The notes below the pieces were generated by a model that saw only the letters and a list, made by a program, of their open reading frames with translations, was not told the DNA's origin and made no database searches. Both the position numbers and the translations under genes were made by a program. A stretch of 32,000 nucleotides of DNA, taken from NCBI RefSeq assembly GCF_000012905.2, contig NC_007494.2, positions 510,001 to 542,000 on the forward strand, read 5' to 3'. Origin of the DNA: Cereibacter sphaeroides 2.4.1. Its GTDB lineage: Bacteria > Pseudomonadota > Alphaproteobacteria > Rhodobacterales > Rhodobacteraceae. This document shows, piece by piece, positions 5,683 through 32,000 of this stretch (position 1 is its first letter; each line of letters opens with the position of its first letter).

Positions 5683-6318
5683 TTAGTCCTTGTTGAGCCA
5701 GCCCAGCGTGCGGGCGCGCATGCGGTCGAAATGAAGCGCCATGGCGGCCGCGGCGGCCTCGGCGTCGCGGCCGGCGATCGCGTCGATCACCGCGATATGT
5801 TCCCGCGCCTGATCGGCAAAGTTGGTGTGGGTGCGGATGATGGTGCTGCGCCGCACGATGGCGCGCTGCTCGGCGAGAAGCCCCGGCAGGAGCGTGAGCC
5901 CCGCCGCCAGCGCCACCGCCCGGTGGAAGATGCCGTCATCCTGCCAGAAGCTCTCGAAATCCATCGCCCCCGCGCCGAGATAGCGCAGCTGCGCCTCGCG
6001 CGCGGCCTCGAGCTCGGGCGTGAGGCCGAAGCCCGCAGCCCTGCGCGCAGCGGCGCGTTCGAGGATCAGCCGGAGCTGGATGATGTCGAGCAGCTGCTCG
6101 ACCGAGACGAGACGCACCAGCAGCGTGCCGTTCACCATCCGCTCGATCACCTGCTCGCGCTCGAGCACCGACAAAGCCGAGCGCAGCGGCGTGCGCGAGA
6201 TGCCCAGCCGCTCGGCCAGCTCGCGCTCGGTCAGGATGGTGTTGGGCGCGATCCGCCCCTCGAGAATATCCTCGCGGAGGCGGCGGTAGGCGCTGTGCGA
6301 GAGCGTCTCGGAACTCAT
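5683..6318 (-). CDS. GntR-family transcriptional regulator (FadR/FCD subfamily)
   Basis: 211 aa with the N-terminal winged HTH motif LTERELAERLGISRTPLRSALSVLEREQVIE and an all-helical C-terminal domain. Its start ATG (6316-6318) overlaps the stop of the upstream M20 gene (ATGA). Confidence 0.9.
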   Translation of the reverse strand: MSSETLSHSAYRRLREDILEGRIAPNTILTERELAERLGISRTPLRSALSVLEREQVIERMVNGTLLVRLVSVEQLLDIIQLRLILERAAARRAAGFGLTPELEAAREAQLRYLGAGAMDFESFWQDDGIFHRAVALAAGLTLLPGLLAEQRAIVRRSTIIRTHTNFADQAREHIAVIDAIAGRDAEAAAAAMALHFDRMRARTLGWLNKD

Positions 6319-7595
6319 GGGGAGCCGTTCCCCGACAGCGCGGCGAAGACGGCTTCTACCGCGCGGGCGAGGTCGGCCGGATCCATCCCCTCGTCGGGGC
6401 AGTGGCTGCCGTTCCAGTTGCGGATGAAGACCATGACGCTGTCCCAGCCGGCGCTGGCGAAGGCCGCCGCATCGTGGCCACCGCCCGAGAGCATCCGGCG
6501 CGGCTGATCGCCCCGGCGCGCGGCGCCGCCCGCCACCCAGTCGATCATCGCAGGCGACAGGCGCGCAGGCTGGCTGCGGCTCTGGGTGCCCAGATCGAAG
6601 CGGATGCCGGGCCGCTCGGTCTCGATGCGGCGGATCTCCTCGCGCAGCACCCGGTCGGCCGCCTCCAGCACCGTCACATCCTCGGAGCGCAGGTCGAGGC
6701 AGAAGGCGAGCTCGCCCGGCACCTTGGCCATGGCATGGGCGGGCGAGGCCGCATCGACCTTGCCGAAGGTCACGGTGAGGTCCGCGCCGCGCGAAAGGAA
6801 CGTCTCCCAGGCGCGGTCCATCGCCATGACCAGATCGGCGAAGGCCACCACCGCGTCGGCGCGGCCCTCACGCGGCGCACCGCCGGAATGGGCCCAGGTG
6901 CCATGCACCTCGGCGGCGCGGTAACGCAGCCCGCCGCGGATGGCCGAGACGATGCCGTAGGGCTCGCCCGCCCGGTCGAGGACGGGGCCCTGCTCGATAT
7001 GGAACTCGAGGAAGCGCGCGGGCTTCGGCGGTTCGGCCCGCATCAGCGCGTCGGGGTCGAAGCCCTGCTCGCGCATGTGCTCGGCCAGCGTCCGGCCGGT
7101 GTCGACGCGGAGCGCCTCGAGCTCTTCGGGCAGGAGCCGGCCGAGCGCCGCGCGCGAGCCGATATAGGAGACGGGGAACCAGACGCTCTCCTCGGCCCGC
7201 GTCACGGTCAGGACGAAATCGGCCTCGGGCGTGACGCCCGCCTCGCGCATGGCCGCGACGAGGGCCAGCGCCGCGGCCACGCCCGCCTGCCCGTCGAAGG
7301 CGCCGCCCTCGGCCACCGTGTCGAGGTGCGAGCCGCAATGGAGCGCCGGAAGGCTCGGGTCGCGCCCCTCCATCCGGGCGAAGAGGTTGCCGGCATGATC
7401 GCGGCTGACGCTCATGCCGAGCGCGCGGGCCTCGGCCTCGATCAGCGCATGGGCATGGCTTTCCAGATCGGAATAGGAGGGGCGGGTCCAGCCGGGGCCG
7501 CCCTCGGAAAGCGCGTTCACCTCGGCCAGCACCCGGTCGATGGTGCTGCGGATGGCGCGGGCGGGGGCGTCCTCAGCCAGGGGCAGATCGGTCAT
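6315..7595 (-). CDS. M20-family Zn-dependent amidohydrolase (allantoate amidohydrolase / N-carbamoyl-L-amino-acid hydrolase family)
   Basis: An internal ATG at 7593-7595 gives MTDLPLAEDAP..., 426 aa. Motifs include GSHLDTV, GAFDGQAGV, EFHIEQGPVL and SGGGHDA. The 793-aa ORF in the track is a run-on into the upstream gene's alternate frame. Confidence 0.85.
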   Translation of the reverse strand: MTDLPLAEDAPARAIRSTIDRVLAEVNALSEGGPGWTRPSYSDLESHAHALIEAEARALGMSVSRDHAGNLFARMEGRDPSLPALHCGSHLDTVAEGGAFDGQAGVAAALALVAAMREAGVTPEADFVLTVTRAEESVWFPVSYIGSRAALGRLLPEELEALRVDTGRTLAEHMREQGFDPDALMRAEPPKPARFLEFHIEQGPVLDRAGEPYGIVSAIRGGLRYRAAEVHGTWAHSGGAPREGRADAVVAFADLVMAMDRAWETFLSRGADLTVTFGKVDAASPAHAMAKVPGELAFCLDLRSEDVTVLEAADRVLREEIRRIETERPGIRFDLGTQSRSQPARLSPAMIDWVAGGAARRGDQPRRMLSGGGHDAAAFASAGWDSVMVFIRNWNGSHCPDEGMDPADLARAVEAVFAALSGNGSP

Positions 7596-10307: not shown

Positions 10308-11035
10308 GCGCGGATCTCTTCGGGGGTCACGATCATCTCGCCTGCGGCACTGCGCGCCTCGAGCGCGCGCGCCTCCTCGGGTCCGACAGGATGGAAGCGG
10401 ATATGGTCGCCTGCGCGGAACAGGAAGGGCTCGGCGCGGGCGGGATCGAAGCTGCGCACCGGCGTCCAGCCGAGGAAGCGCCAGCCCGAGGGCCCGGCGA
10501 CGGAATTGATGTTGCCCTGCTGGCCGCCGATGCCGACCGCGCCGCGCGGGATGTTCTGGCGCGGCTTCGGCAGGCGGGGCGTGTGCAGGATCTCGGGCTG
10601 GCCGCCGAGATAGGCGAAGCCCGGCGCGAAGCCGATCATGAAGACGCGGTAGTCGGTCCCGGAATGGAGTGCGATCAGCTCTTCGGGCGAGAGGCCCTTC
10701 ATGCGGGCCATCTCCTGAAGATCCTGCCCCACCTCGCCGCCGTAGAGGCAGGGGATCCGCCAGAGCCGGCCCGCCGCCGCCGCGAGCGGCCGGGCCGCGA
10801 TCTCGAGAAGCCGGGGGCCGAGGTCCTTCGCGCGGATGCGTTCGGGGTCGTAGCGCACGAGAAGCGAGCGGTAGGTCGGCACGATGTCGAGGACGCCCGC
10901 GAGGTCGCCGGACCGCGCGGCCTCCTCGACAGCCTCCGCAAGCGCGATGATGCGGGCATTGGCCTCGGCATCGATGCTTTCGCCGATCTGGACGGTGAGG
11001 GCGCTGTCGCCGCAGGGAAGAAGGCTGGGGGTCAT
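10304..11035 (-). CDS. pxpB: 5-oxoprolinase subunit B (KipI / allophanate hydrolase subunit 1 family)
   Basis: ATG at 11033-11035 gives MTPSLLPCGDSALTVQIG..., 243 aa. The VPTYRSLLVRYDP and FAPGFAYLGG motifs are typical. The 849-aa ORF in the track is a spurious upstream extension through the dctM antisense frame. Confidence 0.85.
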   Translation of the reverse strand: MTPSLLPCGDSALTVQIGESIDAEANARIIALAEAVEEAARSGDLAGVLDIVPTYRSLLVRYDPERIRAKDLGPRLLEIAARPLAAAAGRLWRIPCLYGGEVGQDLQEMARMKGLSPEELIALHSGTDYRVFMIGFAPGFAYLGGQPEILHTPRLPKPRQNIPRGAVGIGGQQGNINSVAGPSGWRFLGWTPVRSFDPARAEPFLFRAGDHIRFHPVGPEEARALEARSAAGEMIVTPEEIRA

Positions 11036-11066: not shown

Positions 11067-11087
11067 CCGCAGCCGTCAGGGCTGCGG
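11067..11087 (-). other. Intercistronic stem-loop between the TRAP large permease gene and pxpB
   Basis: CCGCAGCC-gtcag-GGCTGCGG forms a perfect 8-bp stem. A second possible stem, GGATCAT(11043-11049)/ATGATCC(11062-11068), lies next to it. It sits in the 59-nt gap inside the operon. Function unknown. Confidence 0.3.
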
Positions 11088-11094
11088 ACCTCTG

Positions 11095-12396
11095 TCAGTT
11101 GCCGCGTATCAGGTCCGGCAGGAAGCCGATGATGCCCGGGAAGACCGCGATGAGCAGCACGAAGGCCGCCATGATGAGGAAGAAGGGCATGGTGGCGCGC
11201 GTGATGCGCCCCATGCTGTCCCCCGTCAGCCGCTGGATCACCGTGAGGTTGAAGCCCACCGGCGGCGTGATCTGGGCCATCTCGACCACGATCACGAGGA
11301 AGATGCCGAACCAGACCTTGTCGTAGCCCGCGGCCACCGCCAGCGGCAGCGTGATCGGCAGCGTCATCACGATGATGCCGAGCCCCTCCATCACCGTGCC
11401 GAGCAGGACGTAGAAGATCAGCAGCACCACCACGAGCATCAGGGGCGACATGCCCCAGCTCTGGATCTCGGTCGCGATGTAGCGCGGCACGCCGAGATAG
11501 CCGATCATCGTCGACAGGAACATCGCCCCGATCATGATGAGGCCGATCATGGCGCAGCTTTCGGCCGCCTGACGCGCGGCGCTCAGAAGGCCCCCCAGCG
11601 TCAGCGTGCGCTGCGCGAAGCCGATGATCATCGAGACGACCACGCCCACGGTGGCGGCCTCGGTCGGCGAGGCGATCCCGCCGTACATCGAGCCGATGAC
11701 GCCCGCGATGAGGAGAAGAAGCGGCCCCAGATCCTTCAACGCCACCATCTTCTCGCGGAAGCTGGTGCGCGGGGGAGTCGCGCCCACGAGCGCGGGGTTG
11801 AGCCACGAGCGGATCGCGAGATACCCCATGTAGGAGGCCGCGAGCATCAGCCCCGGCACGATGCCGGCGATGAAGAGCCGCAGGATCGATTCCTCGGCCA
11901 TCACCCCGTAGATGATCATGATGGTCGAGGGCGGGATCAGGAAGCCGAGCGTCCCCGCCCCGGCAAGGCTGCCCGTCACGAGGTCGCGGTTGTAGCCGCG
12001 GTCGATCAGTTCCTTGGCGGTGATGCGCCCCACGGTGGCCGTGGTCGCCGCCGACGAGCCGCAGACCGAGGCGAACATGGTGCAGCCGAGCACGGTCAGG
12101 TGCGACAGCCGCCCCGGCACCCGGCGCAGCCAGGGCGAGAGGCCGGTGAACAGCGCCTCGGAGATCTTCGTGCGGAAGAGGATCTCGGCCATCAGGATGA
12201 AGAGCGGCAGCGCGAGCAGCTCGGGCGAGACGACGACGTTGTAGGTCTGCTGCGCGAGAAGCTTGAGCCCCGGCATGTTCGGCCGGAAGAGCGTAAGCAG
12301 CCCCACGCCGGTGCCGATGAGCCCGAGGCCGATCCAGAGGCCGCTGCCCAGAAGCAGCGTGAGAAGGCCGAGCAGGGTGGCAATGATCTTTCCCAT
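11095..12396 (-). CDS. TRAP transporter large permease subunit (DctM family)
   Basis: 433 aa and very hydrophobic, with a multi-TM DctM-like sequence (…GSSAATTATVG…, …IPPSTIMIIYG…). Confidence 0.92.
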   Translation of the reverse strand: MGKIIATLLGLLTLLLGSGLWIGLGLIGTGVGLLTLFRPNMPGLKLLAQQTYNVVVSPELLALPLFILMAEILFRTKISEALFTGLSPWLRRVPGRLSHLTVLGCTMFASVCGSSAATTATVGRITAKELIDRGYNRDLVTGSLAGAGTLGFLIPPSTIMIIYGVMAEESILRLFIAGIVPGLMLAASYMGYLAIRSWLNPALVGATPPRTSFREKMVALKDLGPLLLLIAGVIGSMYGGIASPTEAATVGVVVSMIIGFAQRTLTLGGLLSAARQAAESCAMIGLIMIGAMFLSTMIGYLGVPRYIATEIQSWGMSPLMLVVVLLIFYVLLGTVMEGLGIIVMTLPITLPLAVAAGYDKVWFGIFLVIVVEMAQITPPVGFNLTVIQRLTGDSMGRITRATMPFFLIMAAFVLLIAVFPGIIGFLPDLIRGN

Positions 12397-12405
12397 GGAC
12401 GGCTC

Positions 12406-12939
12406 CTATTCCAGACCGGGGCCGACGGAGAGTTCCTCGCCGCGCAAGAGGCGCAGGATCTGGGCGAGGCACTGCAGGGTGAGGATCGTGGCGCCCGTCG
12501 CAAGCGCCGCCTGCGGGTAGACGAGCGGGACGCGGAACGAGGTGGCGGCGGTCGAGCCGCGCTGCGCCGAGAGCCAGGCCATCTCGATCAGGGCCCAGCT
12601 CAGATAGGCGCAGATCGCGAGGCCCACGAGGCAGGCCGCGAACTCGAGCGTGCGGCCCACCGCGCGGGGCATCGATTCGAGCAGGGCCGTGACGCGGACA
12701 TGGCTGCCGCCCTTGAGTGCGCTGCCGCTGGCCAGAAGGAAGCAGGTTCCCATGAAGTAGCCCGCCAGATCCCAGGAGAAGTGGATCGAATAGGCGAGAA
12801 GGTTGCGCGAGAAGATCTCGGCCGCCACGAGGACGAGGATACCGAGGAGGCACAGGGCCGCGAGATAGCCGCCCAGATCGGTTACGCCGTCGATCACGGC
12901 GAGCGTCCTGCGGAAGCGGGTTGGGGCAAGTGAGGTCAT
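12406..12939 (-). CDS. TRAP transporter small permease subunit (DctQ family)
   Basis: The start is taken at ATG 12937-12939 (MTSLAPTRFRRTLAVIDGV...), giving 177 aa and 4 predicted TM segments. The 29 extra residues of the longer ORF are Arg/Pro-rich. Confidence 0.8.
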   Translation of the reverse strand: MTSLAPTRFRRTLAVIDGVTDLGGYLAALCLLGILVLVAAEIFSRNLLAYSIHFSWDLAGYFMGTCFLLASGSALKGGSHVRVTALLESMPRAVGRTLEFAACLVGLAICAYLSWALIEMAWLSAQRGSTAATSFRVPLVYPQAALATGATILTLQCLAQILRLLRGEELSVGPGLE

Positions 12940-12999
12940 GGAGCTCAACGGTCGACGAGGGGAAGGAGGCGCCGCGTCGCGGAGCCGGAGAGGGGGAAT

Positions 13000-13024
13000 G
13001 CGGGCGGGGCCTTCGCCCCGCCGC
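13000..13024 (-). other. GC-rich stem-loop immediately downstream of the TRAP binding-protein gene
   Basis: GCGGGCGGGGC-cttc-GCCCCGCCGC forms a stem of about 10 bp with one bulged G. It lies in the 97-nt dctP-dctQ spacer and has no U-tract. This placement is typical of 3'-end stabiliser or attenuator hairpins after binding-protein genes. Confidence 0.35.
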
Positions 13025-13036
13025 ATCCCTGTCCCG

Positions 13037-14020
13037 TCAGTTGCGCAGGGTCAGATAGGCGTCGATGATCGGCGCCGCCTCCGGCACCCGGGTCTTGTAG
13101 GCATCCCAGAGCGGCAGCGCCTTCTCGAGCAGCGCGGCCGACAGTTCGGGCGACGGAGCCGAGACCTCGACACCGTTCTCCTTCAGGGTGGCGATCTTCT
13201 TGGCATCCTCGGCGCGGCTGTTCAGCCAGAACTGACCTTCGAGGCCGGCGGCGGTTTCCTCGATCTTCTGCCGGGTCTCGAGCGGCAGCTCGTTCCAGGC
13301 ATCGAGGTTCACCGACATGATGTTCGACGAAGCCTGCCAATTGAAGGTGCTCATGTATTTGGTGAATTCCCAGAAGGCGCCGTCCACGCCCGACGAGGAG
13401 GAGGTCGTCACGCCCTTGATGGTGCCAGCCGCGAGCGAGGGCACCACCTCGCCCCAGGGCATCTGGATCGGCGTGGCGCCGAGCGCGCCGAAGAAGTCGT
13501 TGCCGTTCGAATCGACCACGCGGATCGTGAGGCCCTTGAGGTCCTCGACCGTGTTGATCGGGTTCGGCGCGAAGACGGCCTGCCCCGGCCACGGCACCAT
13601 GTAGAGGATCTTCTGGTTCATGCCGGCCGCGACCTCGTCGAGCTTCGGACGGTAGAACTTGTGCAGGAGCGCGAGGTCGGCCATCGTCGGCGCGAGGAAG
13701 GGCAGCGTCTCGATCCCGAGTACCGGAGCCTCGCCCACCTGCTGGTTGAGCAGGATCTCTGCGATCGGCACCAGCCCGTCGCGCACCGCGGCCATACCTT
13801 CCGGGCCCTTGATCCCGAGCGCGCCGCCGGAATGGACCGTGATGACCACTTCGCCGTCAGTCGCTTCCTTCACCGCATCCGCGAACGCCATGGCGTTCTG
13901 GGTGTGGAAGTTGCCTTCCGGCCAGACGATCGACATGTCCCATTTGGTTTCGGCCCAGGCCGACGTGGCGGCGACCGAGACGGCAAAAGCGGCAGTGGCA
14001 GCGATACTTCCCTGTTTCAT
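13037..14020 (-). CDS. TRAP transporter substrate-binding protein (DctP family), first gene of the minus-strand operon
   Basis: 327 aa with a signal peptide (MKQGSIAATAAFAVSVAATSAWA/ETK) and a DctP-like body. Confidence 0.9.
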   Translation of the reverse strand: MKQGSIAATAAFAVSVAATSAWAETKWDMSIVWPEGNFHTQNAMAFADAVKEATDGEVVITVHSGGALGIKGPEGMAAVRDGLVPIAEILLNQQVGEAPVLGIETLPFLAPTMADLALLHKFYRPKLDEVAAGMNQKILYMVPWPGQAVFAPNPINTVEDLKGLTIRVVDSNGNDFFGALGATPIQMPWGEVVPSLAAGTIKGVTTSSSSGVDGAFWEFTKYMSTFNWQASSNIMSVNLDAWNELPLETRQKIEETAAGLEGQFWLNSRAEDAKKIATLKENGVEVSAPSPELSAALLEKALPLWDAYKTRVPEAAPIIDAYLTLRN

Positions 14021-23380: not shown

Positions 23381-24306
23381 TCGGCGGGCGGACGGCGCCC
23401 GAGATCTCGCTGCGGCTCCTCGAGATCTTCGCGGCCATGATGCGCGCGGGCACCACGGTCGAGGCGGCCGAGATGCTGGGCGTGTCGCAGCCCGCCGTCT
23501 CGGCCGGCCTCAAGCAGCTCGAGACCCAGCTCGGCATCGTGCTCTTCGAGCGCGCCTCGCGCCGCATGATGCCCACGGCCGAGGCGCGCGAGCTGTTCGC
23601 CGAGATCCGGCCCATGTTCTCGATGCTGCGCAGCTTCACCCAGACCGCCCGCGACATCCGCGAGGGGTTGAGCGGGCGGCTGCGGATCATCAGCACCCCG
23701 CCCATCGGCCACACCCTCGCCCCCCGTGCGCTGGTCGAGTTCCTGCGCGAGCGTCCCGGCGTCTCGGTGGCCTTCGACGTGCGCCGCCTCGAACATGTGA
23801 TCGACGCGGTGCAGAGCGGCAGTGCCGATCTGGGCCTCGCCCTCAGCATGGACCGCTATACGGCGCTCAATTCCGAGGTGCTGCACGAGACGCATATGGT
23901 GGCGCTCGTGGATGCGGCGGGGCCGCTTGCCGCGCAGACACAGGTCACGGCCGAAGACCTTGCCGCGCATCCCTTCGTGGGGATCGAGGGCGACTCGAAG
24001 CTCGGCGGCCTCGTCCGCTCGGCCTTCCTGCAGAGCGGACTGGGCTACCTGCCCCAGATCGAGGTCCGCTATGTCTCGACCGCGGCCGAGCTTGTGAACC
24101 ACGGGCTCGGCAATGCGGTGGTCGATCCCTTCACCGCCCATTATCATGCCCGGCCCGGCATCGCGATCCGGCCCTTCGTGCCGGCCTGCATGACCCGCGT
24201 CGTGCTGCTCACCCGCCGCGGCGTGCCGCGCAGCCAGCTCGCCCATGCCTTCGCCGCGACGCTGAAACCGATTTTCGCCGAACCGCTCCGGAGAATTCAC
24301 GCATGA
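23377..24306 (+). CDS. LysR-family transcriptional regulator, embedded in the operon
   Basis: HTH motif LRLLEIFAAMMRAGTTVEAAEMLGVSQPAVSAGLKQLETQLGIVLFER followed by a LysR substrate-binding domain. There is no in-frame ATG before the HTH, so the start is proposed at GTG 23377 overlapping the racemase stop (GTGA). The start position is the uncertain part. Confidence 0.8.
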   Translation: MIGGRTAPEISLRLLEIFAAMMRAGTTVEAAEMLGVSQPAVSAGLKQLETQLGIVLFERASRRMMPTAEARELFAEIRPMFSMLRSFTQTARDIREGLSGRLRIISTPPIGHTLAPRALVEFLRERPGVSVAFDVRRLEHVIDAVQSGSADLGLALSMDRYTALNSEVLHETHMVALVDAAGPLAAQTQVTAEDLAAHPFVGIEGDSKLGGLVRSAFLQSGLGYLPQIEVRYVSTAAELVNHGLGNAVVDPFTAHYHARPGIAIRPFVPACMTRVVLLTRRGVPRSQLAHAFAATLKPIFAEPLRRIHA

Positions 24307-24911
24307 TGCTCGACCTGGGGTCGCTGCCGCCCGCCACCCGCTACAAGCTGCTGACCGCCATCGTCCTGCCGCGCCCGGTGGCCTGGGTCACGACGCAGAG
24401 CCCCGAGGGCGTGGTCAATGCGGCGCCCTTCTCCTTCTTCAACCTCTTCGGCCAGAACCCGGCCCTCGTCGTGCTGGGGCTCGAACATCGCGCGGACGGC
24501 TCGATGAAGGACACGACGCGCAACATCCGCGAGACGGGCGAGTTCGTGGTGAACATCGTGACCGAGGATCTGGTGGCCCCCATGGTGGCAAGCGCCGCCC
24601 CGGTGGGCCCCGGCACGAGCGAGCCCGAGGCGCTGGGGCTCGCGCTCGCCCCGTCGCTGACCGTGGCCCCGCCGCGGCTGGCCGCCGCCCCCGCCGCCAT
24701 CGAGTGCCGCCGCACGGTCGGGCTCTCCTTCAGCGCCGAGCGCGAGATCCTCGTGGGCGAGGCCACGGGACTGGCCGCCCGCGAGGGCCTGATCGACCCC
24801 GAGAAATGGTATGTGGACTGGCAGGGCGACTACCCGGTGGCCCGCCTCTTCGCCGACCGCTACGCCCGTCTGGTCGAGATCGACCGCCATGCGATCCCTC
24901 CCGCGATCTAG
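24303..24911 (+). CDS. Flavin reductase family protein (FMN-binding split-barrel, HpaC/RutF-like)
   Basis: ATG 24303 overlaps the LysR stop (ATGA). The sequence reads …PRPVAWVTTQSPEGVVNAAPFSFFN…, the typical flavin-reductase domain. 202 aa. Confidence 0.85.
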   Translation: MMLDLGSLPPATRYKLLTAIVLPRPVAWVTTQSPEGVVNAAPFSFFNLFGQNPALVVLGLEHRADGSMKDTTRNIRETGEFVVNIVTEDLVAPMVASAAPVGPGTSEPEALGLALAPSLTVAPPRLAAAPAAIECRRTVGLSFSAEREILVGEATGLAAREGLIDPEKWYVDWQGDYPVARLFADRYARLVEIDRHAIPPAI

Positions 24912-24927
24912 CTCCTCCCTCGGCCCT

Positions 24928-25003
24928 GCATAGGCGCAAGGCAGTTGATCCGGCGGGAGAATCCGGGGATCGTGTCGCCTTGTCCCTTTCGGGCATAGGC
25001 GCA
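24928..25003. repeat. 11-bp direct repeat GCATAGGCGCA x2 in the intergenic region ahead of the T6SS module
   Basis: Exact copies lie at 24928-24938 and 24993-25003, 65 nt start to start. ATCCGG occurs three times between and around them. Function unknown. Confidence 0.4.
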
Positions 25004-25126
25004 TCCGGTGGCCCGCGGCTCGCGACCGTCCCGTCGGAGACCAGCGCCTCCCCTGTGGGGGACGTTCCTCCGGGGCCGGGGCACACCCCTGCGGCCGGGA
25101 GGGCGCGCGGCCTGACACGAACGAAT

Positions 25127-25155
25127 TTGGAAAAGCCGCCGATTCCGGTTAACCT
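25127..25155 (+). promoter_or_regulatory. Weak sigma70-like promoter candidate for the T6SS effector module
   Basis: TTGGAA-N17-TAACCT matches 4/6 at -35 and 3/6 at -10. It lies about 35 nt upstream of the small ORF at 25189. Sequence match only. Confidence 0.2.
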
Positions 25156-25188
25156 TCCACCCATCGGGGCGAGCCACCGGGAGGAAGG

Positions 25189-25266
25189 ATGGAACTGCGG
25201 TTCATCGGACTTCGGAAGGCGGATGCGGGCTCGGCACGCCGGGACGCGAACTGCGGGGATCCCTGA
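25189..25266 (+). CDS. Possible 25-codon leader ORF (MELRFIGLRKADAGSARRDANCGDP)
   Basis: It has an ATG preceded by GGGAGGAAGG, the best SD in the intergenic region. Its TGA (25264-25266) ends 2 nt before the TTG start candidate of the next gene. It is short and I recognise no homology. Confidence 0.2.
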   Translation: MELRFIGLRKADAGSARRDANCGDP

Positions 25267-25268
25267 CC

Positions 25269-26558
25269 TTGCCGGCTGCGGGCGGGGCCTTTGCTGCCGC
25301 GCGGCAGCCCGCGATCTGGAACCGGCCGCTCCTCGAGCCGCGCATCCTGCGCCTGCATGCCGAGAACGCGGCCTTCCTCGCCGACCGGATTGCCATGGCC
25401 CGCGACGGCCCGAACGAGCGCGCCCTCGATCTCTTCGACCTCGAAGCCCGGCTCGGAGGCCATCTGGCGGCGCTGCGACGGGCGGGTGCGGCGGGCCTCG
25501 AGGCCGCCCTGATGGCCCTCGACGCAGAGCCCGGACCGGGCGAAATCCTTGTGGCGGCGACGCTGTCGCTGGGTCACCGTCCGGAGGACGATCTCTGCGT
25601 TCACCTGCCGGGCCGGCTCCTCGTGCCCGCAGCCGCCCCCGCGATCGGCGCGGCGCTGGCGCTGCTCGATCCGCCGCGGATCGGCCCGCGGCTCAGGGCC
25701 TGGCTGGACGGGGACGATCCTCTGTCCGTCCTCGCCGCGCTCGGGGCCTGCGGCCGGCTTCGCGCGGACCCGGGACCGCGTCTCGCACCGCTCCTGCGCC
25801 ACGGTGCCGCCCCGGTGGCGGCGCGGGCCGTGCGGCTGGCCGGAGAGCTCGGCCGCGCGGACCTCGGCGCACCGATCCTCGACCGGCTCGGCTCCTGTCC
25901 CGAGGCACCCCGCGCGGCGGTGCTGCTGGGCGAGCGCCACCACGCTCCGCCGCATCTCCTGCCCCGGGATCCCGGCGCGCCCCCCGGACGCTGGCGCGAG
26001 GCCGCGGAGCTGCTGCCGCTCGCGGTCCCGCCCGCCGCGGCAAGTGCCGAGATCGCCCGCCTTCTCGGCCATCCCGCCACGCGCCGCTGGGCGGTGGTGG
26101 CCGCCGGGGCGCTCGGTCTGCCCGAGACGCTCGACTGGCTGATCGCACAGATGGAGGACCCGCTTCTGGCGCGCTCGGCCGGGCTCGCCTTCGGGCAGAT
26201 CACCGGGGCCCGGCTCGGGCCCGACAATCTCGAACGCGCGACTTTTCCCGAGGACCCCGAGGATCCGGTGGCCGATGCCTGCCGCCTCGAACGCAGCATC
26301 GAGAGCCACGCCTACTGGCCCGATCCGGAGAAGTGCGGGGCCTGGCTCGCGAAGCGCAGGGCGGGCCTTGGCGCGGGCGAGCGGCACCTCCTCGGGGCCG
26401 CGGCCTGGACCCATGCCGCGCCGCCCGAACCGGGACATCGCACGCAGCTCCAGCTGCGGGCCCTGTCGCTCGAGATCGCCTGCCGCTCCCCCTCGGCCCC
26501 GCTGCCCGACTGGCGCGCGCCGGTGCGGCTCGGCCCCGACGGGTTCGGGAGGGGCTAG
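25269..26558 (+). CDS. HEAT-repeat protein resembling the T6SS-associated TIGR02270 family
   Basis: 429 aa. The N-terminal sequence LRLHAENAAFLADRIAMARDGP...LEARLGGHLAALRRAG resembles the family's conserved start as I remember it. It has HEAT/PBS-lyase-like repeats (AARAVRLAGELGRADLGAPILDRL; RRWAVVAAGALGLPETLDWLIAQMEDPLLARSAGLAFGQI). The only in-frame canonical start after the stop at 25113 is TTG 25269. The family assignment is from memory and was not searched. Confidence 0.6.
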   Translation: MPAAGGAFAAARQPAIWNRPLLEPRILRLHAENAAFLADRIAMARDGPNERALDLFDLEARLGGHLAALRRAGAAGLEAALMALDAEPGPGEILVAATLSLGHRPEDDLCVHLPGRLLVPAAAPAIGAALALLDPPRIGPRLRAWLDGDDPLSVLAALGACGRLRADPGPRLAPLLRHGAAPVAARAVRLAGELGRADLGAPILDRLGSCPEAPRAAVLLGERHHAPPHLLPRDPGAPPGRWREAAELLPLAVPPAAASAEIARLLGHPATRRWAVVAAGALGLPETLDWLIAQMEDPLLARSAGLAFGQITGARLGPDNLERATFPEDPEDPVADACRLERSIESHAYWPDPEKCGAWLAKRRAGLGAGERHLLGAAAWTHAAPPEPGHRTQLQLRALSLEIACRSPSAPLPDWRAPVRLGPDGFGRG

Positions 26559-26559
26559 G

Positions 26560-27582
26560 ATGCGGATCGACAATGCCACCCCCTGGCCCGCGACCTTCAC
26601 CATGGCCTTCGACGCGGCCGGGCACGAGCAGGTGGTGCTGGTCACGAAGGCGAGCTTCGCCCTGCCCCGGGGCACCGGTCCCTGCCAGCCGACCGAGCCG
26701 CTGCCGCTGATCGAGAGCGACCTGTTCGGGGCCGATCCCGCGGCCGATGCGCCGGTGCAGGAATATGACTTCGCCCCGCACAAGCCCTTCTGCGACGTGC
26801 TCCTCCATGGCCGCGCCCACGCGCCCGAGGGCCGGCCCGTCACCGAACTGCCGGTGGGTCTGCGGCTCGGGGGCTGGTCCAAGCGGCTCACGGTCCGCGG
26901 CGCCCGCATCTGGTTGAGGGCCGCGGCGGGCTGGCGGGTCTCCGACCCACGACCCTTCACGAGCCAGCCCATCGGCTATGACCATGCCTACGGCGGCACC
27001 GACCCCGATCCGGGGGGCGGCGGCCGCGCGGCCGTCTTCGAGGAGAACCCCGCGGGCCTCGGCTTCTACCCGCTCCGGCCGGACAGGGAGAGTGCGCCCC
27101 TGCCCCATACGGCCGAAGCCGGCGCGGATGCGACCGATCCCCGCGGCGGGCTCCGACCGATGGCCCTCGGGCCGGTCGGGCGCACTTGGCTGCCCCGCAG
27201 GCGGCACGCGGGCACCTACGACGCCGCCTATTTCGAGAGCCGGACGCCCTTCCTGCCGCTCGATTTCGACCCCCGCTATTTTCAGGCCGCCGCCGAGGAT
27301 CAGCAGATCCCTTATCCCAAGGGCGGAGAGCCCGTCGAGCTCGTGAACCTCTCGCCGCGGGGCCGCATCGCCACCTGGCTGCCGCGCCTGCAGATCCTCG
27401 CCACCTTCGAGCGGCGCTCCGGCCGGCTGACCCAGCGGATCGCCAATCTCGACACGGTGCTGTTCCTGCCGGAGGAGGAGGTGGTCACCCTGACCTTCCG
27501 CACGAGGATCACGGCCGAGCGCGACATCTTCGAATTCGCGCGGGTTCTCGTCTCGGCCCGGCAGGAGGCGACCGATGGCTGA
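26560..27582 (+). CDS. DUF2169-family T6SS adaptor/chaperone
   Basis: ATG 26560 lies 1 nt after the preceding stop, with GGGAGGGG upstream. 340 aa. Family hallmarks are present: VVLVTKASFAL, DFAPHKPFCDVLLHGRAHAP, LTVRGARIW, YDHAYGG, ENPAGLGF, GPVGRTWLPRRRHAGTYD, FLPLDFDPRYFQAA and NLDTVLFLPEE. Confidence 0.85.
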   Translation: MRIDNATPWPATFTMAFDAAGHEQVVLVTKASFALPRGTGPCQPTEPLPLIESDLFGADPAADAPVQEYDFAPHKPFCDVLLHGRAHAPEGRPVTELPVGLRLGGWSKRLTVRGARIWLRAAAGWRVSDPRPFTSQPIGYDHAYGGTDPDPGGGGRAAVFEENPAGLGFYPLRPDRESAPLPHTAEAGADATDPRGGLRPMALGPVGRTWLPRRRHAGTYDAAYFESRTPFLPLDFDPRYFQAAAEDQQIPYPKGGEPVELVNLSPRGRIATWLPRLQILATFERRSGRLTQRIANLDTVLFLPEEEVVTLTFRTRITAERDIFEFARVLVSARQEATDG

Positions 27583-28666
27583 GCTGCGGGGCCTCGCCCC
27601 CGGCCTGTCGGTGGTGGGCTACGGCATGTGGACGGCGCTCGGGCCGGACGGCCCCACGACGGTCGCGGGCCTCGACGCCCGGCTGATCGTCTCGCAGTCG
27701 GGCGACCTGCGCGAGCCCCTGACCGGCGCGGCCCTCCCCTGCTTCCGGCTCGCGGCCCAGCATTGGTGGGCGGGGCCGAGCTTCCTGTCCGAGATGCTTC
27801 TGCCCGTCCTCGGGGAATGCGCCGAGCAGCTGGCCGCACTGCCCGCGCCGCTCCGGCGACCGGCCTCGGAGGTGCCGGTGCTGATCGCCGTGGCCCCGTG
27901 CGGGCGTCCCGCACGCCCGGACGATCTCGAGGCGCGGCTGCTGGCGGAGCTCGAGGCCCGGCTGGGGCCGCTGCCCGAAGGCAGCGCGGTCGTGGGCGCC
28001 GGACGGGTGGGTCTGCCGCATCTGATCGCGCGGGCCGCCCGACAGGCGGGCCGTCACCCGGTGCAGATCCTGATCGGGGTCGAGAGCTTCCTTCTGCAGG
28101 AGATCGTCGATCACTATGCCGACCGTCACCGGCTTTTGTCCGAGGAGAACAGCTCGGGCTTCGTGCCGGGCGAGGCCGCGGCCGCGCTGATCGTGGCGCC
28201 CCGGGGCATGGCGCCCGGTCTGGCGCTGAAGGGCCTCGGCGCGGGCCGCGAGCCTTCGGGTGCAGGCGGCAGCCGCGATGCGCCGGTGACGGGCGAGGGC
28301 CTCACCGATGCGATCCGCGCGGCGCTGGCGGCGGCCGAGATCCCGCTCTTCGACATTCCGATCTTTCTCGGCGACCTGAACGGCGAGCATTTCAAGTTCA
28401 AGGAGGCGATGATCGCCACGATGCGCCTCGACCGTCTGCCGCCCGAGAATGTCTCCCGGCGGCCGCGGGGTCATCCGGAACATTGGAACGCGATCGAGGG
28501 GCTGGGAGAGATCGGCGCGGCGCTGATGCCCGCGCAGCTCGGCTGGGCCTTCGAGGCGTCGCGGAGCGGCCGGCTGCCGCAGGGCCGGGCGCTGGCCTTC
28601 GCCGGCGAGGACGATGGCGCACGGGTGGCGATCGTCGCCGCTGCGGCAGGAGGACCTGTCCGGTGA
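27575..28666 (+). CDS. Thiolase-fold / beta-ketoacyl-synthase-like protein, apparently non-catalytic
   Basis: ATG 27575 overlaps the DUF2169 stop by 8 nt, with AGGAGG 5 nt upstream. 363 aa. KS-like blocks are present (SSGFVPGEAAAALIV resembles RDGFVLGEGAG; GLGEIGAAL resembles TGHLLGAAG). However, the positions aligning to the Cys-His-His triad read A/G, D and E by eye. Confidence 0.75.
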   Translation: MAELRGLAPGLSVVGYGMWTALGPDGPTTVAGLDARLIVSQSGDLREPLTGAALPCFRLAAQHWWAGPSFLSEMLLPVLGECAEQLAALPAPLRRPASEVPVLIAVAPCGRPARPDDLEARLLAELEARLGPLPEGSAVVGAGRVGLPHLIARAARQAGRHPVQILIGVESFLLQEIVDHYADRHRLLSEENSSGFVPGEAAAALIVAPRGMAPGLALKGLGAGREPSGAGGSRDAPVTGEGLTDAIRAALAAAEIPLFDIPIFLGDLNGEHFKFKEAMIATMRLDRLPPENVSRRPRGHPEHWNAIEGLGEIGAALMPAQLGWAFEASRSGRLPQGRALAFAGEDDGARVAIVAAAAGGPVR

Positions 28667-29664
28667 CCGATGTCTATGCCAACGGCCGCGAAGTCTCGGG
28701 CAAGGCCACGCCCAACAAGACGATCAGCGCGCTGCCCGATGTCTGCCTCTCGCCGCCCCCGCCGCCCGCGGGGCCGGTGCCGATCCCCTATCCGAACTTC
28801 GGCACCGCCTCGGACACGTCGGACGGCTGCACCAGCGTCTTTGTGAAGGGCAAGGAAGCGGGCAAGAAGAACGCCTCAAAATATTCTTCGATCAAGGGCG
28901 ACGAGCCCGCCACCCGCAGCTTCGGCGGCAGCGTCGTTTCGCACACGATCACCGGCACGCTGAAATTCGCGGCCTATTCCTTCGACGTGCTGTTCGAGGG
29001 CGAAGGCGCCGAACGGTTCATGGACCTCACCACGACGAACCATATGAACCCGGGCGGCGGCGCCAGCACCAGCGTGGCGCGTCCGCGTCCGCCCAAGCCG
29101 CCGAGCGAGGCCGAATGCAAGCAGATGCGCGCCGACCTTGCCAAGGAACGCGAGACGCTGTCGGGGGCCACGGCCGACAAGCGGGCGACGAAGGGCACCA
29201 TCGCCATCGCCAAACCCTCGAACGGCGGCCGGCAGTTCTCGGCGAGCGGCCAGCTCATGCGCGACAAGCTGTCGGGCAATCCGAACGGCTACATCGATCC
29301 CAAGCCCGCCCGCCATGTCGATGGCAAGGGCCGCCCCTCGAAGGTCTGCGGCGGGCGCAAGCATCACCATCCGAGCGGCGGCAGCGCCAAGCATTGCGAG
29401 GCGCAGTCGGTCGACACGATGAGTTGGGAACCCGGCCCCTCCAAGATCACCTTCGCCATCGACTATCCGGCCATCACCTTCAAGAAGGACAAGCTGGGCC
29501 GCACCCGCAAGATCGTGGATCAGAAGGCCAGGGATCGCCCCTGCCAGAGCTGCCGCCGTCTGCTGAAGAAGGCCTGCGAATGCGGCGTGAAGATCTTCCT
29601 GTGCATGGATGACGGGCCGGTAGACTGGTGCAAGGAACAGGGCTTCGGAAAGGGCGGCGGATGA
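28663..29664 (+). CDS. T6SS effector: N-terminal DUF4150 (PAAR-like) domain plus a C-terminal toxin domain with a deaminase-like HxE...PCxxC signature
   Basis: GTG 28663 overlaps the preceding stop (GTGA), with AGGAGG 9 nt upstream. 333 aa. DUF4150 hallmarks lie in residues 1-128: VYANGREVSGK, ALPDVCLSPPPPPAGPVPIPYPNF, VFVKGKEAG, IKGDEPAT, YSFDVLFEGEGAERFMDLTTTNHMN. After a Pro-rich linker comes a basic C-terminal domain of about 185 aa containing H244-C-E246 (29392-29400) and P293-C-Q-S-C297 (29539-29553). Confidence 0.8.
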   Translation: MTDVYANGREVSGKATPNKTISALPDVCLSPPPPPAGPVPIPYPNFGTASDTSDGCTSVFVKGKEAGKKNASKYSSIKGDEPATRSFGGSVVSHTITGTLKFAAYSFDVLFEGEGAERFMDLTTTNHMNPGGGASTSVARPRPPKPPSEAECKQMRADLAKERETLSGATADKRATKGTIAIAKPSNGGRQFSASGQLMRDKLSGNPNGYIDPKPARHVDGKGRPSKVCGGRKHHHPSGGSAKHCEAQSVDTMSWEPGPSKITFAIDYPAITFKKDKLGRTRKIVDQKARDRPCQSCRRLLKKACECGVKIFLCMDDGPVDWCKEQGFGKGGG

Positions 29665-30440
29665 GACCAGCGGAAGAAATCGCGCGGATGCTGCCGATCC
29701 CGGCGGACCTCGGCCGGGGCGCCTTCACCGGCAAGTGGCGCAGCGCCTCGGCGCATATCAGCCCCGAGCGGATGACGCCGCTGAAGGAGGCGCTACTCTT
29801 CAAGACCAACGCCGCTCTCTATTCCCTCGTCTCGGCCGCGATGGTCTGGCAGGCCGAACGGCTCCGCGAGCAGACGGACGTCTCGCCGCTCCTCGACATG
29901 GCCGAGGCCCTCTATGCCTGGCAGCAGGACTGGCACTGGTTCGGCCGGACGCCCGCAATCGCCGACATCGACACGATCGACGAGGCGCCGAGGCCGCAGG
30001 GCAGCGTCCTGATGATGCTCGACCTGATCCATCAGGACCACATCTACACCTCCGGGCACTGGCCCTCCGAACCGATCTTCTCGGTCACGGCGGACATGCT
30101 GGTGCTGACGCGGTTCAACCTGCCTGCGGACGCGGTTCCTGCCTTCGATGCCTGGGTCGAGGCCGTGATCGCGCGGATGGATCTTGTCGCGGAATTTCCC
30201 GAGCATGGCGAGACGCCCGAGCTCGAGGTGGGCGACACGCCCGAGCGGCGCGCCTGGGCGGCGAAAGTGATGGGCCGGCCGCTGCCGCCGTCGGTCCTCG
30301 ACCTCTCGCGCGATCCGGACCCGTCCCGCTGGCCCGAAGAGTGGCGCGACCTGCTGGCCCGGCTCGACTGGAACCGCAACCCCTTCCTCCGCCACCCCCC
30401 CGGCACGCTACGCCCGCGGCAGGACGGCGAGGTGCCATGA
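29661..30440 (+). CDS. Candidate immunity protein 1 (no family recognised)
   Basis: ATG 29661 overlaps the toxin stop (ATGA), giving MRPAEEIARML..., 259 aa. It is acidic and Trp-rich, sits immediately downstream of the toxin, and shares a collinear motif block with the next ORF. Confidence 0.6.
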   Translation: MRPAEEIARMLPIPADLGRGAFTGKWRSASAHISPERMTPLKEALLFKTNAALYSLVSAAMVWQAERLREQTDVSPLLDMAEALYAWQQDWHWFGRTPAIADIDTIDEAPRPQGSVLMMLDLIHQDHIYTSGHWPSEPIFSVTADMLVLTRFNLPADAVPAFDAWVEAVIARMDLVAEFPEHGETPELEVGDTPERRAWAAKVMGRPLPPSVLDLSRDPDPSRWPEEWRDLLARLDWNRNPFLRHPPGTLRPRQDGEVP

Positions 30441-30462
30441 GCAGAAGGCAGGAGCGGGTCTC

Positions 30463-31149
30463 GTGAGCGCCGTCTACGACCATGTCCGCAGCCGGACAGC
30501 CGACGAAGACTCGCGCGATCTGTCCTTCGCCTGGGACCAGTGGCGTTACACCGACTACTTCCTTTTCGAGGAGGATACCTCGGCCGCCCCCTTCGAGAAC
30601 CTCTCCGATCTGGCCTGCCGTGGCCTCGTCATCGCCGTGGCCGAGGCCATCACCGCACGGTTCCATGCGCACCGCGGCACGGAGGAGGCGCGGTCCTATC
30701 TCGATGCCGCCTGGGCCACGATGCTGCGCGAGGGCGCCTGCGACTACGCCCTCCTGCCCGCCGAGGACTGGCCGGGGCCGGTGCGTGGCGCCCTCCGGGC
30801 CGCCATGCTCGTCGTCAACGACACGCTCCACGAGGCGCGCGACGATGGCGACTTCCCCGCCCGCTGCGTCTGGATCCTGCAGCTCGCGCGCCACGTCCTG
30901 CCGCCGCGCCTTCGACCCGAGTTCGAAGCCTGGGTCGCCGTCGCCACCTCGCGCCTCGCGCGCCACTGGCCGGTGCCCGAGCACCGGAGCGGCCTCTTCG
31001 CCGAGAGCTTCGACCGCGGCCCGCCGGTCGGGCCCTGCACCTTCCTGCCGCGCGATCCCGGCACCCCCGAGAGCGCCGCGGCCTGCCTCGCCCGCCATCT
31101 CGCGACCCTCGCCGGCAACCCCTGGCTCTTGCCCCCCGATACCGCCTAG
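30463..31149 (+). CDS. Candidate immunity protein 2 (paralogue of the preceding ORF)
   Basis: GTG 30463 with AGGAG 9 nt upstream. 228 aa. It shares PxF[DE]AWV...R[ML]......PEH with immunity candidate 1 (PEFEAWVAVATSRLARHWPVPEH against PAFDAWVEAVIARMDLVAEFPEH). The spacing back to an upstream P.G anchor is nearly equal (69 against 71 residues). Confidence 0.6.
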   Translation: MSAVYDHVRSRTADEDSRDLSFAWDQWRYTDYFLFEEDTSAAPFENLSDLACRGLVIAVAEAITARFHAHRGTEEARSYLDAAWATMLREGACDYALLPAEDWPGPVRGALRAAMLVVNDTLHEARDDGDFPARCVWILQLARHVLPPRLRPEFEAWVAVATSRLARHWPVPEHRSGLFAESFDRGPPVGPCTFLPRDPGTPESAAACLARHLATLAGNPWLLPPDTA

Positions 31150-31544
31150 TTCAGTTGCACGCTCGCCCCCTGGAGCCTGTTCGCACCGCTGGCCCGACTC
31201 AGGATCTCGGTGCCGCGGATCGTGACCCGCCCGTCCGGCGCCAGCGTGATCGAGGCGCGCCCGCAGCGCAGCACCACCTCGCGCCGCCCCTCCAGAACGA
31301 GGCGCGTTCCGTCGAGTTCGGCCTCCGGCACCGCCCGGCGGATCAGGCCCAGCACCACCGGAGAGGCTCCGACCTCGGCCACCACCGCCTCCGCTCCCAT
31401 ATCGGCGGCGGAGACCGCCACGACGGTTTCGGCCAGCGCTTCCGCCCCGCCGATCTCCACCCGCAGGAGCCCGCAGGGATCGATCCCGAGGATCCGGCCC
31501 CGCAGCAGGCGCGAGCCCGCCGCGGCAAAGCCACCGTCATGCAT
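31146..31544 (-). CDS. Small gp5/VgrG-like protein (OB-fold-like N-terminus plus short beta-helix-like C-terminus; DUF6484-like by recollection)
   Basis: ATG at 31542-31544 with GGAGG 6 nt upstream. 132 aa. The start overlaps the clpV stop by 8 nt (ATGCATGA). The C-terminal sequence EVVLRCGRASITLAPDGRVTIRGTEILSRASGANRLQGASVQLN resembles VgrG/gp5 beta-helix repeats. Confidence 0.65.
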   Translation of the reverse strand: MHDGGFAAAGSRLLRGRILGIDPCGLLRVEIGGAEALAETVVAVSAADMGAEAVVAEVGASPVVLGLIRRAVPEAELDGTRLVLEGRREVVLRCGRASITLAPDGRVTIRGTEILSRASGANRLQGASVQLN

Positions 31545-32000
31545 GATCCGCCTCCGTCTCGAACGCATAGGAAAAGCCTGCGGGGCCGCCGGTGAGGGTC
31601 ACCCGGCTGAAGGCCGCCCCCGCGAGCTGGCGCTCGAGAAGCTTGCGGCTCAGCTCCGGCAGCAGGGTGCCGCTCAGGATCGCGTCGATCATCCGCCCCC
31701 CCGACTCGACCTCGGTGCAGCGGGCGCGGATCGTCTCGAGCACGCCCTCGCCCAGAACCAGCTCGGCGCCGTGCCCCGCCTTCAGCCGCCGGGCAATGGC
31801 CTCGAGCTTCTGCCCCGCGATGGCCGCGATCATCCGGTCCGAGAGCGGCAGGAACGGCAGCACGATCATCCGCCCCAGCAGCGCGGCCGGAAAGACCTGC
31901 AGAAGCGGCGCGCGGAGCGTGGCCGAGACCCGGGCCAGATCCTGCCCCGCCGCCTCCACGATCTCGTCGGTGCCGACGTTCGAGGTCAGCAGGATCACCG
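31537..32000 (-). CDS. tssH: ClpV/TssH-type AAA+ ATPase, C-terminal part (5' end beyond the window)
   Basis: The frame is open to the window edge. The sequence ILLTSNVG...LLQVFPAALLGRM.VLPF.PL... matches the D2-small domain of Clp/Hsp100 ATPases. The assignment to ClpV rather than ClpB rests on the T6SS context. Confidence 0.75.
   Translation of the reverse strand, partial: VILLTSNVGTDEIVEAAGQDLARVSATLRAPLLQVFPAALLGRMIVLPFLPLSDRMIAAIAGQKLEAIARRLKAGHGAELVLGEGVLETIRARCTEVESGGRMIDAILSGTLLPELSRKLLERQLAGAAFSRVTLTGGPAGFSYAFETEADHA

Follow-up and report, generated by a model that had tools for sequence, protein, structure and literature searches.

The window analysed here is a 32,000-nucleotide (nt) stretch of Cereibacter sphaeroides 2.4.1 DNA (contig NC_007494.2, positions 510,001 to 542,000). 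Near its right end it carries six chained plus-strand genes, g1 to g6, between positions 25269 and 31149, and these are the effector cassette of the single type VI secretion system (T6SS) cluster on chromosome II of Cereibacter sphaeroides. We read the cassette as probably being of the Class II Tvp, or synteny type A, kind, loading a PIPY-deaminase effector (the g4 product), with the products of g5 and/or g6 serving as immunity. The raw list of open reading frames (ORFs) is crowded because the window has a G+C content of ~70%; genes were therefore picked by codon-position G+C and translation, and those of the cassette and of its boundary with the secretion cluster are as follows.

25269–26558, plus strand: g1, HEAT/armadillo-like repeat protein, TIGR02270-like (PA0101 type), 429 amino acids (aa), TTG start
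26560–27582, plus strand: g2, DUF2169 protein (TvpA), matching PF09937, ATG start
27575–28666, plus strand: g3, thiolase-like PRK06147 protein (TvpD), matching NF004798, ATG start
28663–29664, plus strand: g4 as a whole, DUF4150/PIPY-toxin, 333 aa, GTG start
28663–29058, plus strand: N-terminal part of g4 (aa 1–132), PAAR-like DUF4150/PIPY domain, matching PF13665
29059–29664, plus strand: C-terminal part of g4 (aa 133–333), deaminase-like toxin domain by motifs, AlphaFold2 model and Foldseek
29661–30440, plus strand: g5, immunity-like protein, 259 aa, diverged paralogue of g6 by hhalign, ATG start
30463–31149, plus strand: g6, immunity-like protein, 228 aa, diverged paralogue of g5 by hhalign, GTG start
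31146–31544, minus strand: g7, small TvpC-like (diverged DUF6484) protein, 132 aa, by similarity to the VgrG tip
31537–32000, minus strand: last 153 codons of tssH/clpV, which continues past the window end, matching TIGR03345

From g1 to g6 the junctions are, in order, a 1-nt gap, overlaps of 8, 4, and 4 nt, and a 22-nt gap. An earlier note on this DNA, made from the sequence alone, had given the same junction sizes, and its boundaries for the five genes g2 to g6 are exact, as translation confirms. The products are 429, 340, 363, 333, 259, and 228 aa long, and the independent gene calls of three public assemblies give the same products, except that g5 is 268 aa in one of them. Cereibacter (Rhodobacter) sphaeroides 2.4.1 has the g3, g4, and g6 proteins in identical form as ABA81072.1, ABA81073.1, and ABA81075.1, and many other strains have identical copies too. 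A scan of positions 24300–32000 for promoters and terminators found none.

Recent work supplies a frame for these genes. Sachar et al. (2025; PMC11883445) showed DUF2169 proteins to be chaperones needed for the function of the spike formed by PIPY (DUF4150) proteins and VgrG, and defined synteny type A as the combination of DUF6484, DUF2169, thiolase-like, and armadillo-like repeat proteins. Working on Serratia, Monlezun et al. (2026; PMC13373197) showed TvpC to form a pre-complex in which VgrG then takes its place; for the P. aeruginosa Class II system they modelled PA0097 (TvpA) and PA0098 (TvpD) as cradling PIPY on a trimer of PA0096 (TvpC), and the HEAT protein is not discussed. The statement in the earlier note that the roles of the HEAT and thiolase-like partners in loading are not mechanistically resolved is thus partly out of date. 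DUF2169 is a demonstrated chaperone of the DUF4150/PIPY tip, and the thiolase-like TvpD and the DUF6484 protein TvpC have modelled roles; for the HEAT protein the statement still stands.

The partner proteins fit this frame. Profile searches uphold the earlier domain calls (DUF2169, DUF4150, a thiolase-like protein, a TIGR02270-like HEAT protein, a small OB-fold neighbour, and clpV), including the two placements on which those calls had been staked, 26560–27582 in DUF2169 and the g4 N-terminus in DUF4150. The g2 product is a single-domain DUF2169 protein that matches PF09937 over positions 2–294 of 294 (E = 1.3e-88). The g3 product, encoded between the DUF2169 and effector genes, matches the PRK06147 thiolase-like equivalog NF004798 at 4.6e-127 and 424 bits, above the 342-bit cut-off. 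The g1 product aligns with positions 5–405 of the 410 in TIGR02270 (1.2e-40), matches Pfam HEAT_2 weakly (3e-4, under the cut-off), is 43% identical to its orthologue in Rhodobacter sp. CZR27, and is homologous to the HEAT proteins of loci in which the HEAT gene stands last (see below). It is a conserved partner that looks required for the system.

The g4 product is built as an effector of the spike-tip kind. Its N-terminus matches PF13665 (DUF4150/Tox-PAAR-like) at 7.6e-33, with the PIPY motif, invariant in the alignment, at aa 40–43. The full-length protein has 676 detectable homologues, mostly 38–50% identical from end to end and annotated only as DUF4150. With the C-terminal domain as the single query, phmmer gave 8 hits among 1.84 billion representatives, a search not sensitive enough to gauge the size of the family or to show other carrier architectures. 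Conservation in the C-terminal domain was read from alignments of 25 and 104 sequences, and in both H244, E246, C294, C297, C152, and C314 are invariant; three further cysteines are conserved at ≥90%, and P293, the proline ahead of C294, is present in most members. The arrangement H-x-E ... C-x-x-C, mostly with a proline before the first cysteine, is the zinc-site signature of the deaminase superfamily. A loose HxE...PCxxC pattern is matched by 77 of the 104 homologues, and a strict cytidine deaminase (CDA) zinc-site pattern by 35. In a confident AlphaFold2 model of residues 131–333 (pLDDT 87.5, pTM 0.84) the HxE and PCxxC motifs open successive helices and a beta-hairpin lies at the end. When this model was compared with the Protein Data Bank (PDB) by Foldseek, essentially all of the top ~48 structures were cytidine or blasticidin-S deaminases (BSD), together with a T6S deaminase toxin of P. 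syringae (9c63). From its motifs and predicted fold, then, the C-terminal domain of g4 is likely a divergent deaminase-fold toxin. Five cysteines outside the HxE/PCxxC site (C152, C229, C307, C314, and C323) are invariant or nearly so throughout the family, and may form a second metal site or disulfides.

A toxin of this type has been predicted before. Robinson et al. (PMC9846239) described, in silico, an allele named Tsd1 at the P. aeruginosa PA0099 locus (PALA35_00106 / ERV74086.1), a 331-aa protein with DUF4150 at 1–135 followed by ~200 aa that carry HAE and PCxxC motifs and match no Pfam family. They reported homologues from Caballeronia and Nitrospirae; it is treated as tse7b/tsd1 in PMC11751169. 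The literature we searched held no experimental work on Tsd1. The g4 product has the same architecture and nearly the same length (333 aa), and Caballeronia and Nitrospirae were also recovered in our locus scan. The earlier note had called the toxin domain of this cassette both different from that of the P. aeruginosa effector Tse7 and new; it does differ from Tse7, but the deaminase-like type is not new, having already been predicted as Tsd1. The two proteins differ in setting, since Tsd1 lies in a HEAT-last cluster of the PAO1 type with one immunity gene (TsdI1), whereas the Cereibacter cassette has the HEAT gene first and two immunity-like genes. They differ also in the fold assigned: Tsd1 was placed by its authors in the helix-4 division, whereas the g4 model ends in a beta-hairpin and matches deaminases of the CDA/BSD type. 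DddA of B. cenocepacia and SsdA of P. syringae (PDB 9c63) are interbacterial T6SS toxins that belong to the deaminase superfamily and have an HxE/PCxxC zinc site, as is predicted for g4, but they have no detectable sequence similarity to g4, are carried by Rhs/PAAR proteins rather than PIPY, and are paired with different immunity families.

At about 14 loci, mostly of Burkholderiales (L021, L035, L038, L044, L046–L051, L055, L056, L061, and L074, mostly near locus position 10380), the PIPY and deaminase domains are separate ORFs. A stop directly follows “...TTHNN” and a Met-initiated deaminase ORF begins a few codons on, either in frame or in +1. Here the fused effector seems to have been divided naturally into a spike tip and a cargo toxin, or else recoding may be at work.

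The two genes downstream of g4 encode immunity-like proteins that, judged by their profiles, are diverged paralogues: hhalign joins the g5 and g6 families with 99.9% probability over 231 columns (E = 1.6e-31), and BLASTP finds a marginal 27% identity over 70 aa. Neither protein matches a Pfam family, even at E = 10, or an NCBIfam family. The AlphaFold2 model of g6 is all-alpha (pLDDT 80), and Foldseek found no solved neighbour for it, the best E being 2.2; a word-indexed homologue search with g6 returned 11 relatives only. A g5-like gene beside the toxin is conserved in Rhodobacterales, and g5/g6-like genes stand downstream of the toxin in nearly all of the 53 deaminase loci described below, in one to three copies, and are absent from loci with other toxins. 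Two variants of annotation may be mentioned here: at locus L001 (9198–10004) g5 is 268 aa and overlaps the g6 start by 4 nt, where the window has 259 aa and a 22-nt gap, and in some strains g6 is annotated as 259 aa from an upstream start.

The cassette converges on clpV, as the earlier note had it. The ORF at the window end matches positions 711–850 of the 852 in TIGR03345 (1.1e-36), the complete clpV at locus L001 being 889 aa, and behind it on the same strand lies g7, which overlaps the g6 stop by 4 nt. The last 54 aa of g7 align with the last 62 aa of the organism’s own VgrG (34% identity, E = 9e-9), and both proteins end in “LN”; its phmmer homologues beside vgrG in other phyla are clear DUF6484 proteins (1e-12 to 1e-20). 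From these similarities g7 appears to be a diverged TvpC that resembles the VgrG tip, which fits the view of TvpC as a partial VgrG mimic (PMC13373197). We considered whether g7 might be a member of the clpV operon only, and set this aside, since in most other phyla the small gene lies directly ahead of the cassette.

The cassette had also been described as lacking vgrG. A tblastn search of the 32-kb window with the genome’s own VgrG (ABA81092.1) indeed gives only the short tip-like segment inside g7, but this is an effect of where the window ends. Following the sequence past position 32000, as the earlier note had advised, leads to the tss core, hcp, and vgrG: beyond the edge lie, in order, clpV, a PpkA-like kinase gene, tssA, tssB, tssC, hcp, tssE, and tssF, and the remainder of the cluster holds tssG, fha, tssJ, K, L, M, and tagF, so that the T6SS core is complete. 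In CP047038.1 the end of g6 is at 542627 and vgrG spans 563587–565890 on the opposite strand, which puts it ~21 kb beyond the cassette, where the cluster ends on its other side; the consecutive accession numbers from the cassette to vgrG are consistent with this layout. There vgrG is the last gene of an operon that also encodes a PP2C phosphatase, an M15 peptidase, and an IcmF-related protein of 802 aa, in that order (L089, 5978–12304), and the M15 peptidase may be a second effector candidate for this T6SS, one directed at peptidoglycan. The adjacency of vgrG, tvpC, and cassette is therefore not kept here, with vgrG distant and on the opposite strand and g7 after clpV. On the other side, upstream of 24912, are genes for an amino-acid ABC transporter, a CN-hydrolase, an amidohydrolase, a hydantoin racemase, a LysR regulator, and a flavin reductase, and these metabolic and regulatory genes place the cassette at the edge of the secretion cluster.

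By analogy with the published models, the N-terminal PIPY (DUF4150) cone of g4 would cap the VgrG spike, its hydrophobic surface being shielded beforehand by g2 (TvpA, DUF2169) and g3 (TvpD, thiolase-like). A trimer of g7 (TvpC), mimicking the VgrG tip, would first template the pre-complex, and VgrG, made from its gene 21 kb away, would then displace TvpC, after which the loaded spike would be fired. Inside the target cell the zinc-dependent deaminase-fold domain at the g4 C-terminus would deaminate bases, most likely cytosine in nucleic acid, while g5 and/or g6 would protect the producer.

The earlier note had likened the cassette to P. aeruginosa PA0095–PA0101, and this link is correct: the same seven protein families appear to be present. 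The P. aeruginosa cluster (H1-T6SS, vgrG1b) comprises VgrG1b, PA0096 (DUF6484/TvpC), PA0097 (DUF2169/TvpA), PA0098 (PRK06147/TvpD), Tse7, Tsi7, and PA0101 (HEAT), and it is a Class II Tvp cluster (PMC13373197) of DUF2169 synteny type A (PMC11883445). It shares with Cereibacter a DUF4150/PIPY-toxin with DUF2169, thiolase-like, DUF6484-like, and HEAT/ARM partners. The two differ in that the HEAT gene is first in Cereibacter and last in P. aeruginosa, TvpC is encoded after clpV on the opposite strand rather than after vgrG, vgrG is 21 kb off, a deaminase-like toxin stands where P. aeruginosa has a Tox-GHH2 nuclease, and there are two immunity-like genes instead of one. The pef operon of P. mirabilis (effector PefE), also of synteny type A, has the same set of accessory genes as Cereibacter, but its toxin domain and gene order differ and it belongs to an enterobacterial T6SS. 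According to the account cited in PMC11883445, transposon insertions in each gene of the P. mirabilis type-A cluster abolish killing, which supports a need for all of the partners. The A. tumefaciens operon vgrG2-tap2(Atu3641)-tde2-tdi2, of Class I Tvp, likewise pairs a DUF2169 chaperone with a DUF4150-toxin, and both it and the Cereibacter cassette belong to alphaproteobacterial T6SSs with a similar core layout (ppkA/pppA/tagF type); however, the tde2 operon is without thiolase-like, DUF6484, and HEAT genes, encodes a DNase toxin, and adjoins its vgrG.

A scan of species-representative genomes yielded 80 loci, and we searched these with the window proteins and a hidden Markov model of the deaminase domain. 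The cassette is kept as a unit with the deaminase toxin in 53 of the 80, and these come from at least eight phyla (Pseudomonadota, Nitrospirota, Myxococcota, Planctomycetota, Acidobacteriota, Verrucomicrobiota, and others). Their order is HEAT, DUF2169, thiolase, and PIPY/deaminase, followed by the g5/g6-like genes. A HEAT gene was seen in 46 of the deaminase loci and stands first in 45 of them; the single exception, with HEAT last, is L039, of Roseateles chitinivorans. By contrast, loci with other toxins (n = 28) have the PAO1 order, with HEAT last in 18 of the 20 in which it was seen. When the thiolase-like proteins are placed in a neighbour-joining tree, deaminase loci with HEAT first fall into one clade and loci with other toxins and HEAT last into another, again with L039 as the one exception. 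HEAT gene position thus follows both toxin type and thiolase-like phylogeny almost perfectly (L006–L085). Because the tree separates both arrangements, HEAT-first is a trait of a sub-lineage and not a local rearrangement, and the description of this cassette as rearranged, in the sense of unusual, does not hold.

The same loci show where the small gene belongs. In 15 deaminase loci the cassette is immediately preceded, on its own strand, by vgrG and the small gene (vgrG-tvpC-cassette), and in 16, mostly of Paracoccaceae such as Tabrizicola and Gemmobacter, the small gene is downstream on the opposite strand and usually behind clpV, which is the layout of the window. The layout of the T6SS core is shared with Rhodobacter sp. 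CZR27 and a metagenomic relative. In CZR27 (L005, NZ_CP023549.1 698534–704254; also L004) the six-gene cassette is found at the opposite end of the cluster, near vgrG though not adjacent to it, while the small TvpC-like gene remains behind tssH; within the family, therefore, all six cassette genes have moved together. A megablast search of the cassette against plasmids gave only a tssH match, in the CZR27 record.

Several observations weigh against the reading of g1 to g6 as a Class II Tvp cassette with a deaminase effector. The g1 score of 139.8 bits is below the curated TIGR02270 cut-off of 206.8; g7 reaches DUF6484 (PF20093) at E = 0.64 only, under the Pfam threshold, and does not adjoin vgrG as TvpC does in the published Class II examples; the likeness of g4 to Tsd1 rests on the published description (architecture, motifs, and taxa); and the literature searched held no experimental work on the C. 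sphaeroides T6SS or its effectors. The toxin domain itself has no Pfam family even at E = 10 and none in NCBIfam over its ~200 aa, it matches no PDB chain by sequence, not even with the 104-sequence profile, and its Foldseek matches are weak (E 0.03–0.7, target-normalised TM 0.37–0.56). These last points, with the five conserved cysteines outside the canonical deaminase site, would suit some other cysteine-rich zinc-binding toxin, for example a nuclease or nucleotide-modifying enzyme with HxE/CxxC motifs. We think such an enzyme unlikely, given that the histidine, the glutamate, and both cysteines are invariant in 104 diverse homologues with the spacing and secondary-structure positions of the deaminase fold, that the structural neighbours are essentially all cytidine or blasticidin deaminases, and that an independent in-silico study (PMC9846239) likewise assigned a toxin with this architecture to the deaminases.

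How immunity is shared between g5 and g6 is more evenly balanced. It is quite possible, though we lean slightly against it, that only one of them is the immunity protein and the other an orphan or spare immunity for the toxins of relatives, or else a factor with an accessory or regulatory role: one immunity protein of ~24 kDa is reported for the Tsd1 locus of P. aeruginosa (PMC9846239), the two BLASTP-marginal sequences are very diverged, and copy number varies from one to three between loci. Across phyla, nevertheless, a tandem pair is found more often than any other copy number, suggesting that both genes are maintained, and Tde5 offers a precedent for dual immunity (PMC13392607). Very improbable, to our mind, is a decayed or silent remnant, parted from vgrG and delivering no effector, despite the 21 kb between them, the weak TTG start of g1 behind an upstream ORF, and an assembly in which the DUF2169 gene and clpV are split. 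All six ORFs are intact, their coupling is tight, many C. sphaeroides strains carry them in identical form, and the core T6SS is complete; moreover Tabrizicola, Gemmobacter, and other Paracoccaceae retain the layout at 40–50% protein identity, which implies purifying selection. We thus retain the effector-loading cassette as the probable reading. A bolder version of it strikes us as doubtful: that the g4 C-terminus founds a deaminase clade that has extra conserved cysteines, lacks a Pfam model, is spread over at least eight phyla, and has a substrate or sequence preference unlike that of DddA and SsdA; that it is held in check by a pair of diverged paralogous immunity proteins whose fold is without a solved relative; and that the HEAT protein, with a gene position that tracks toxin type, is a toxin-domain-specific partner rather than a general spike chaperone.

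Base-editing enzymes have been derived from bacterial deaminase toxins, and for that reason the substrate of the toxin and its two-paralogue immunity are worth measuring in a widespread, deaminase-like family that is known from prediction alone. A compact Class II Tvp system whose TvpC gene stands apart from that of VgrG could help to test the pre-complex hand-over model, and could help to assign a role to the HEAT protein, the lone partner without a proposed function, in a model bacterium that is easily manipulated. The current picture of T6SS effector loading is unchanged; the cassette adds a member to it and a convenient test bed.

Two smaller matters concern gene calls. In assembly L002 (GCA_009767555.1) the DUF2169 gene and clpV are each called in two pieces (5978–7120 and 11075–13859), which reflects either frameshifts or assembly errors in that strain. 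The other is the start of g1, which had been put at 25189. The ATG there opens a separate ORF in a frame different from that of the HEAT gene:

25189–25266, plus strand: 25-codon upstream ORF MELRFIGLRKADAGSARRDANCGDP, ATG start with a strong Shine-Dalgarno sequence

In the frame of the HEAT gene no stop occurs from 25116 onward, and the earliest start codon is the TTG at 25269. A frameshift or assembly error behind the out-of-frame ATG was considered and rejected, as the 429-aa product is called in three independent assemblies and the orthologues are ~411 aa. The 25-codon ORF is absent from the other Rhodobacterales loci examined. Its TGA stop (25264–25266) lies 2 nt ahead of the g1 TTG, and the region (25175–25271) could serve in termination-reinitiation coupling or encode a leader peptide.

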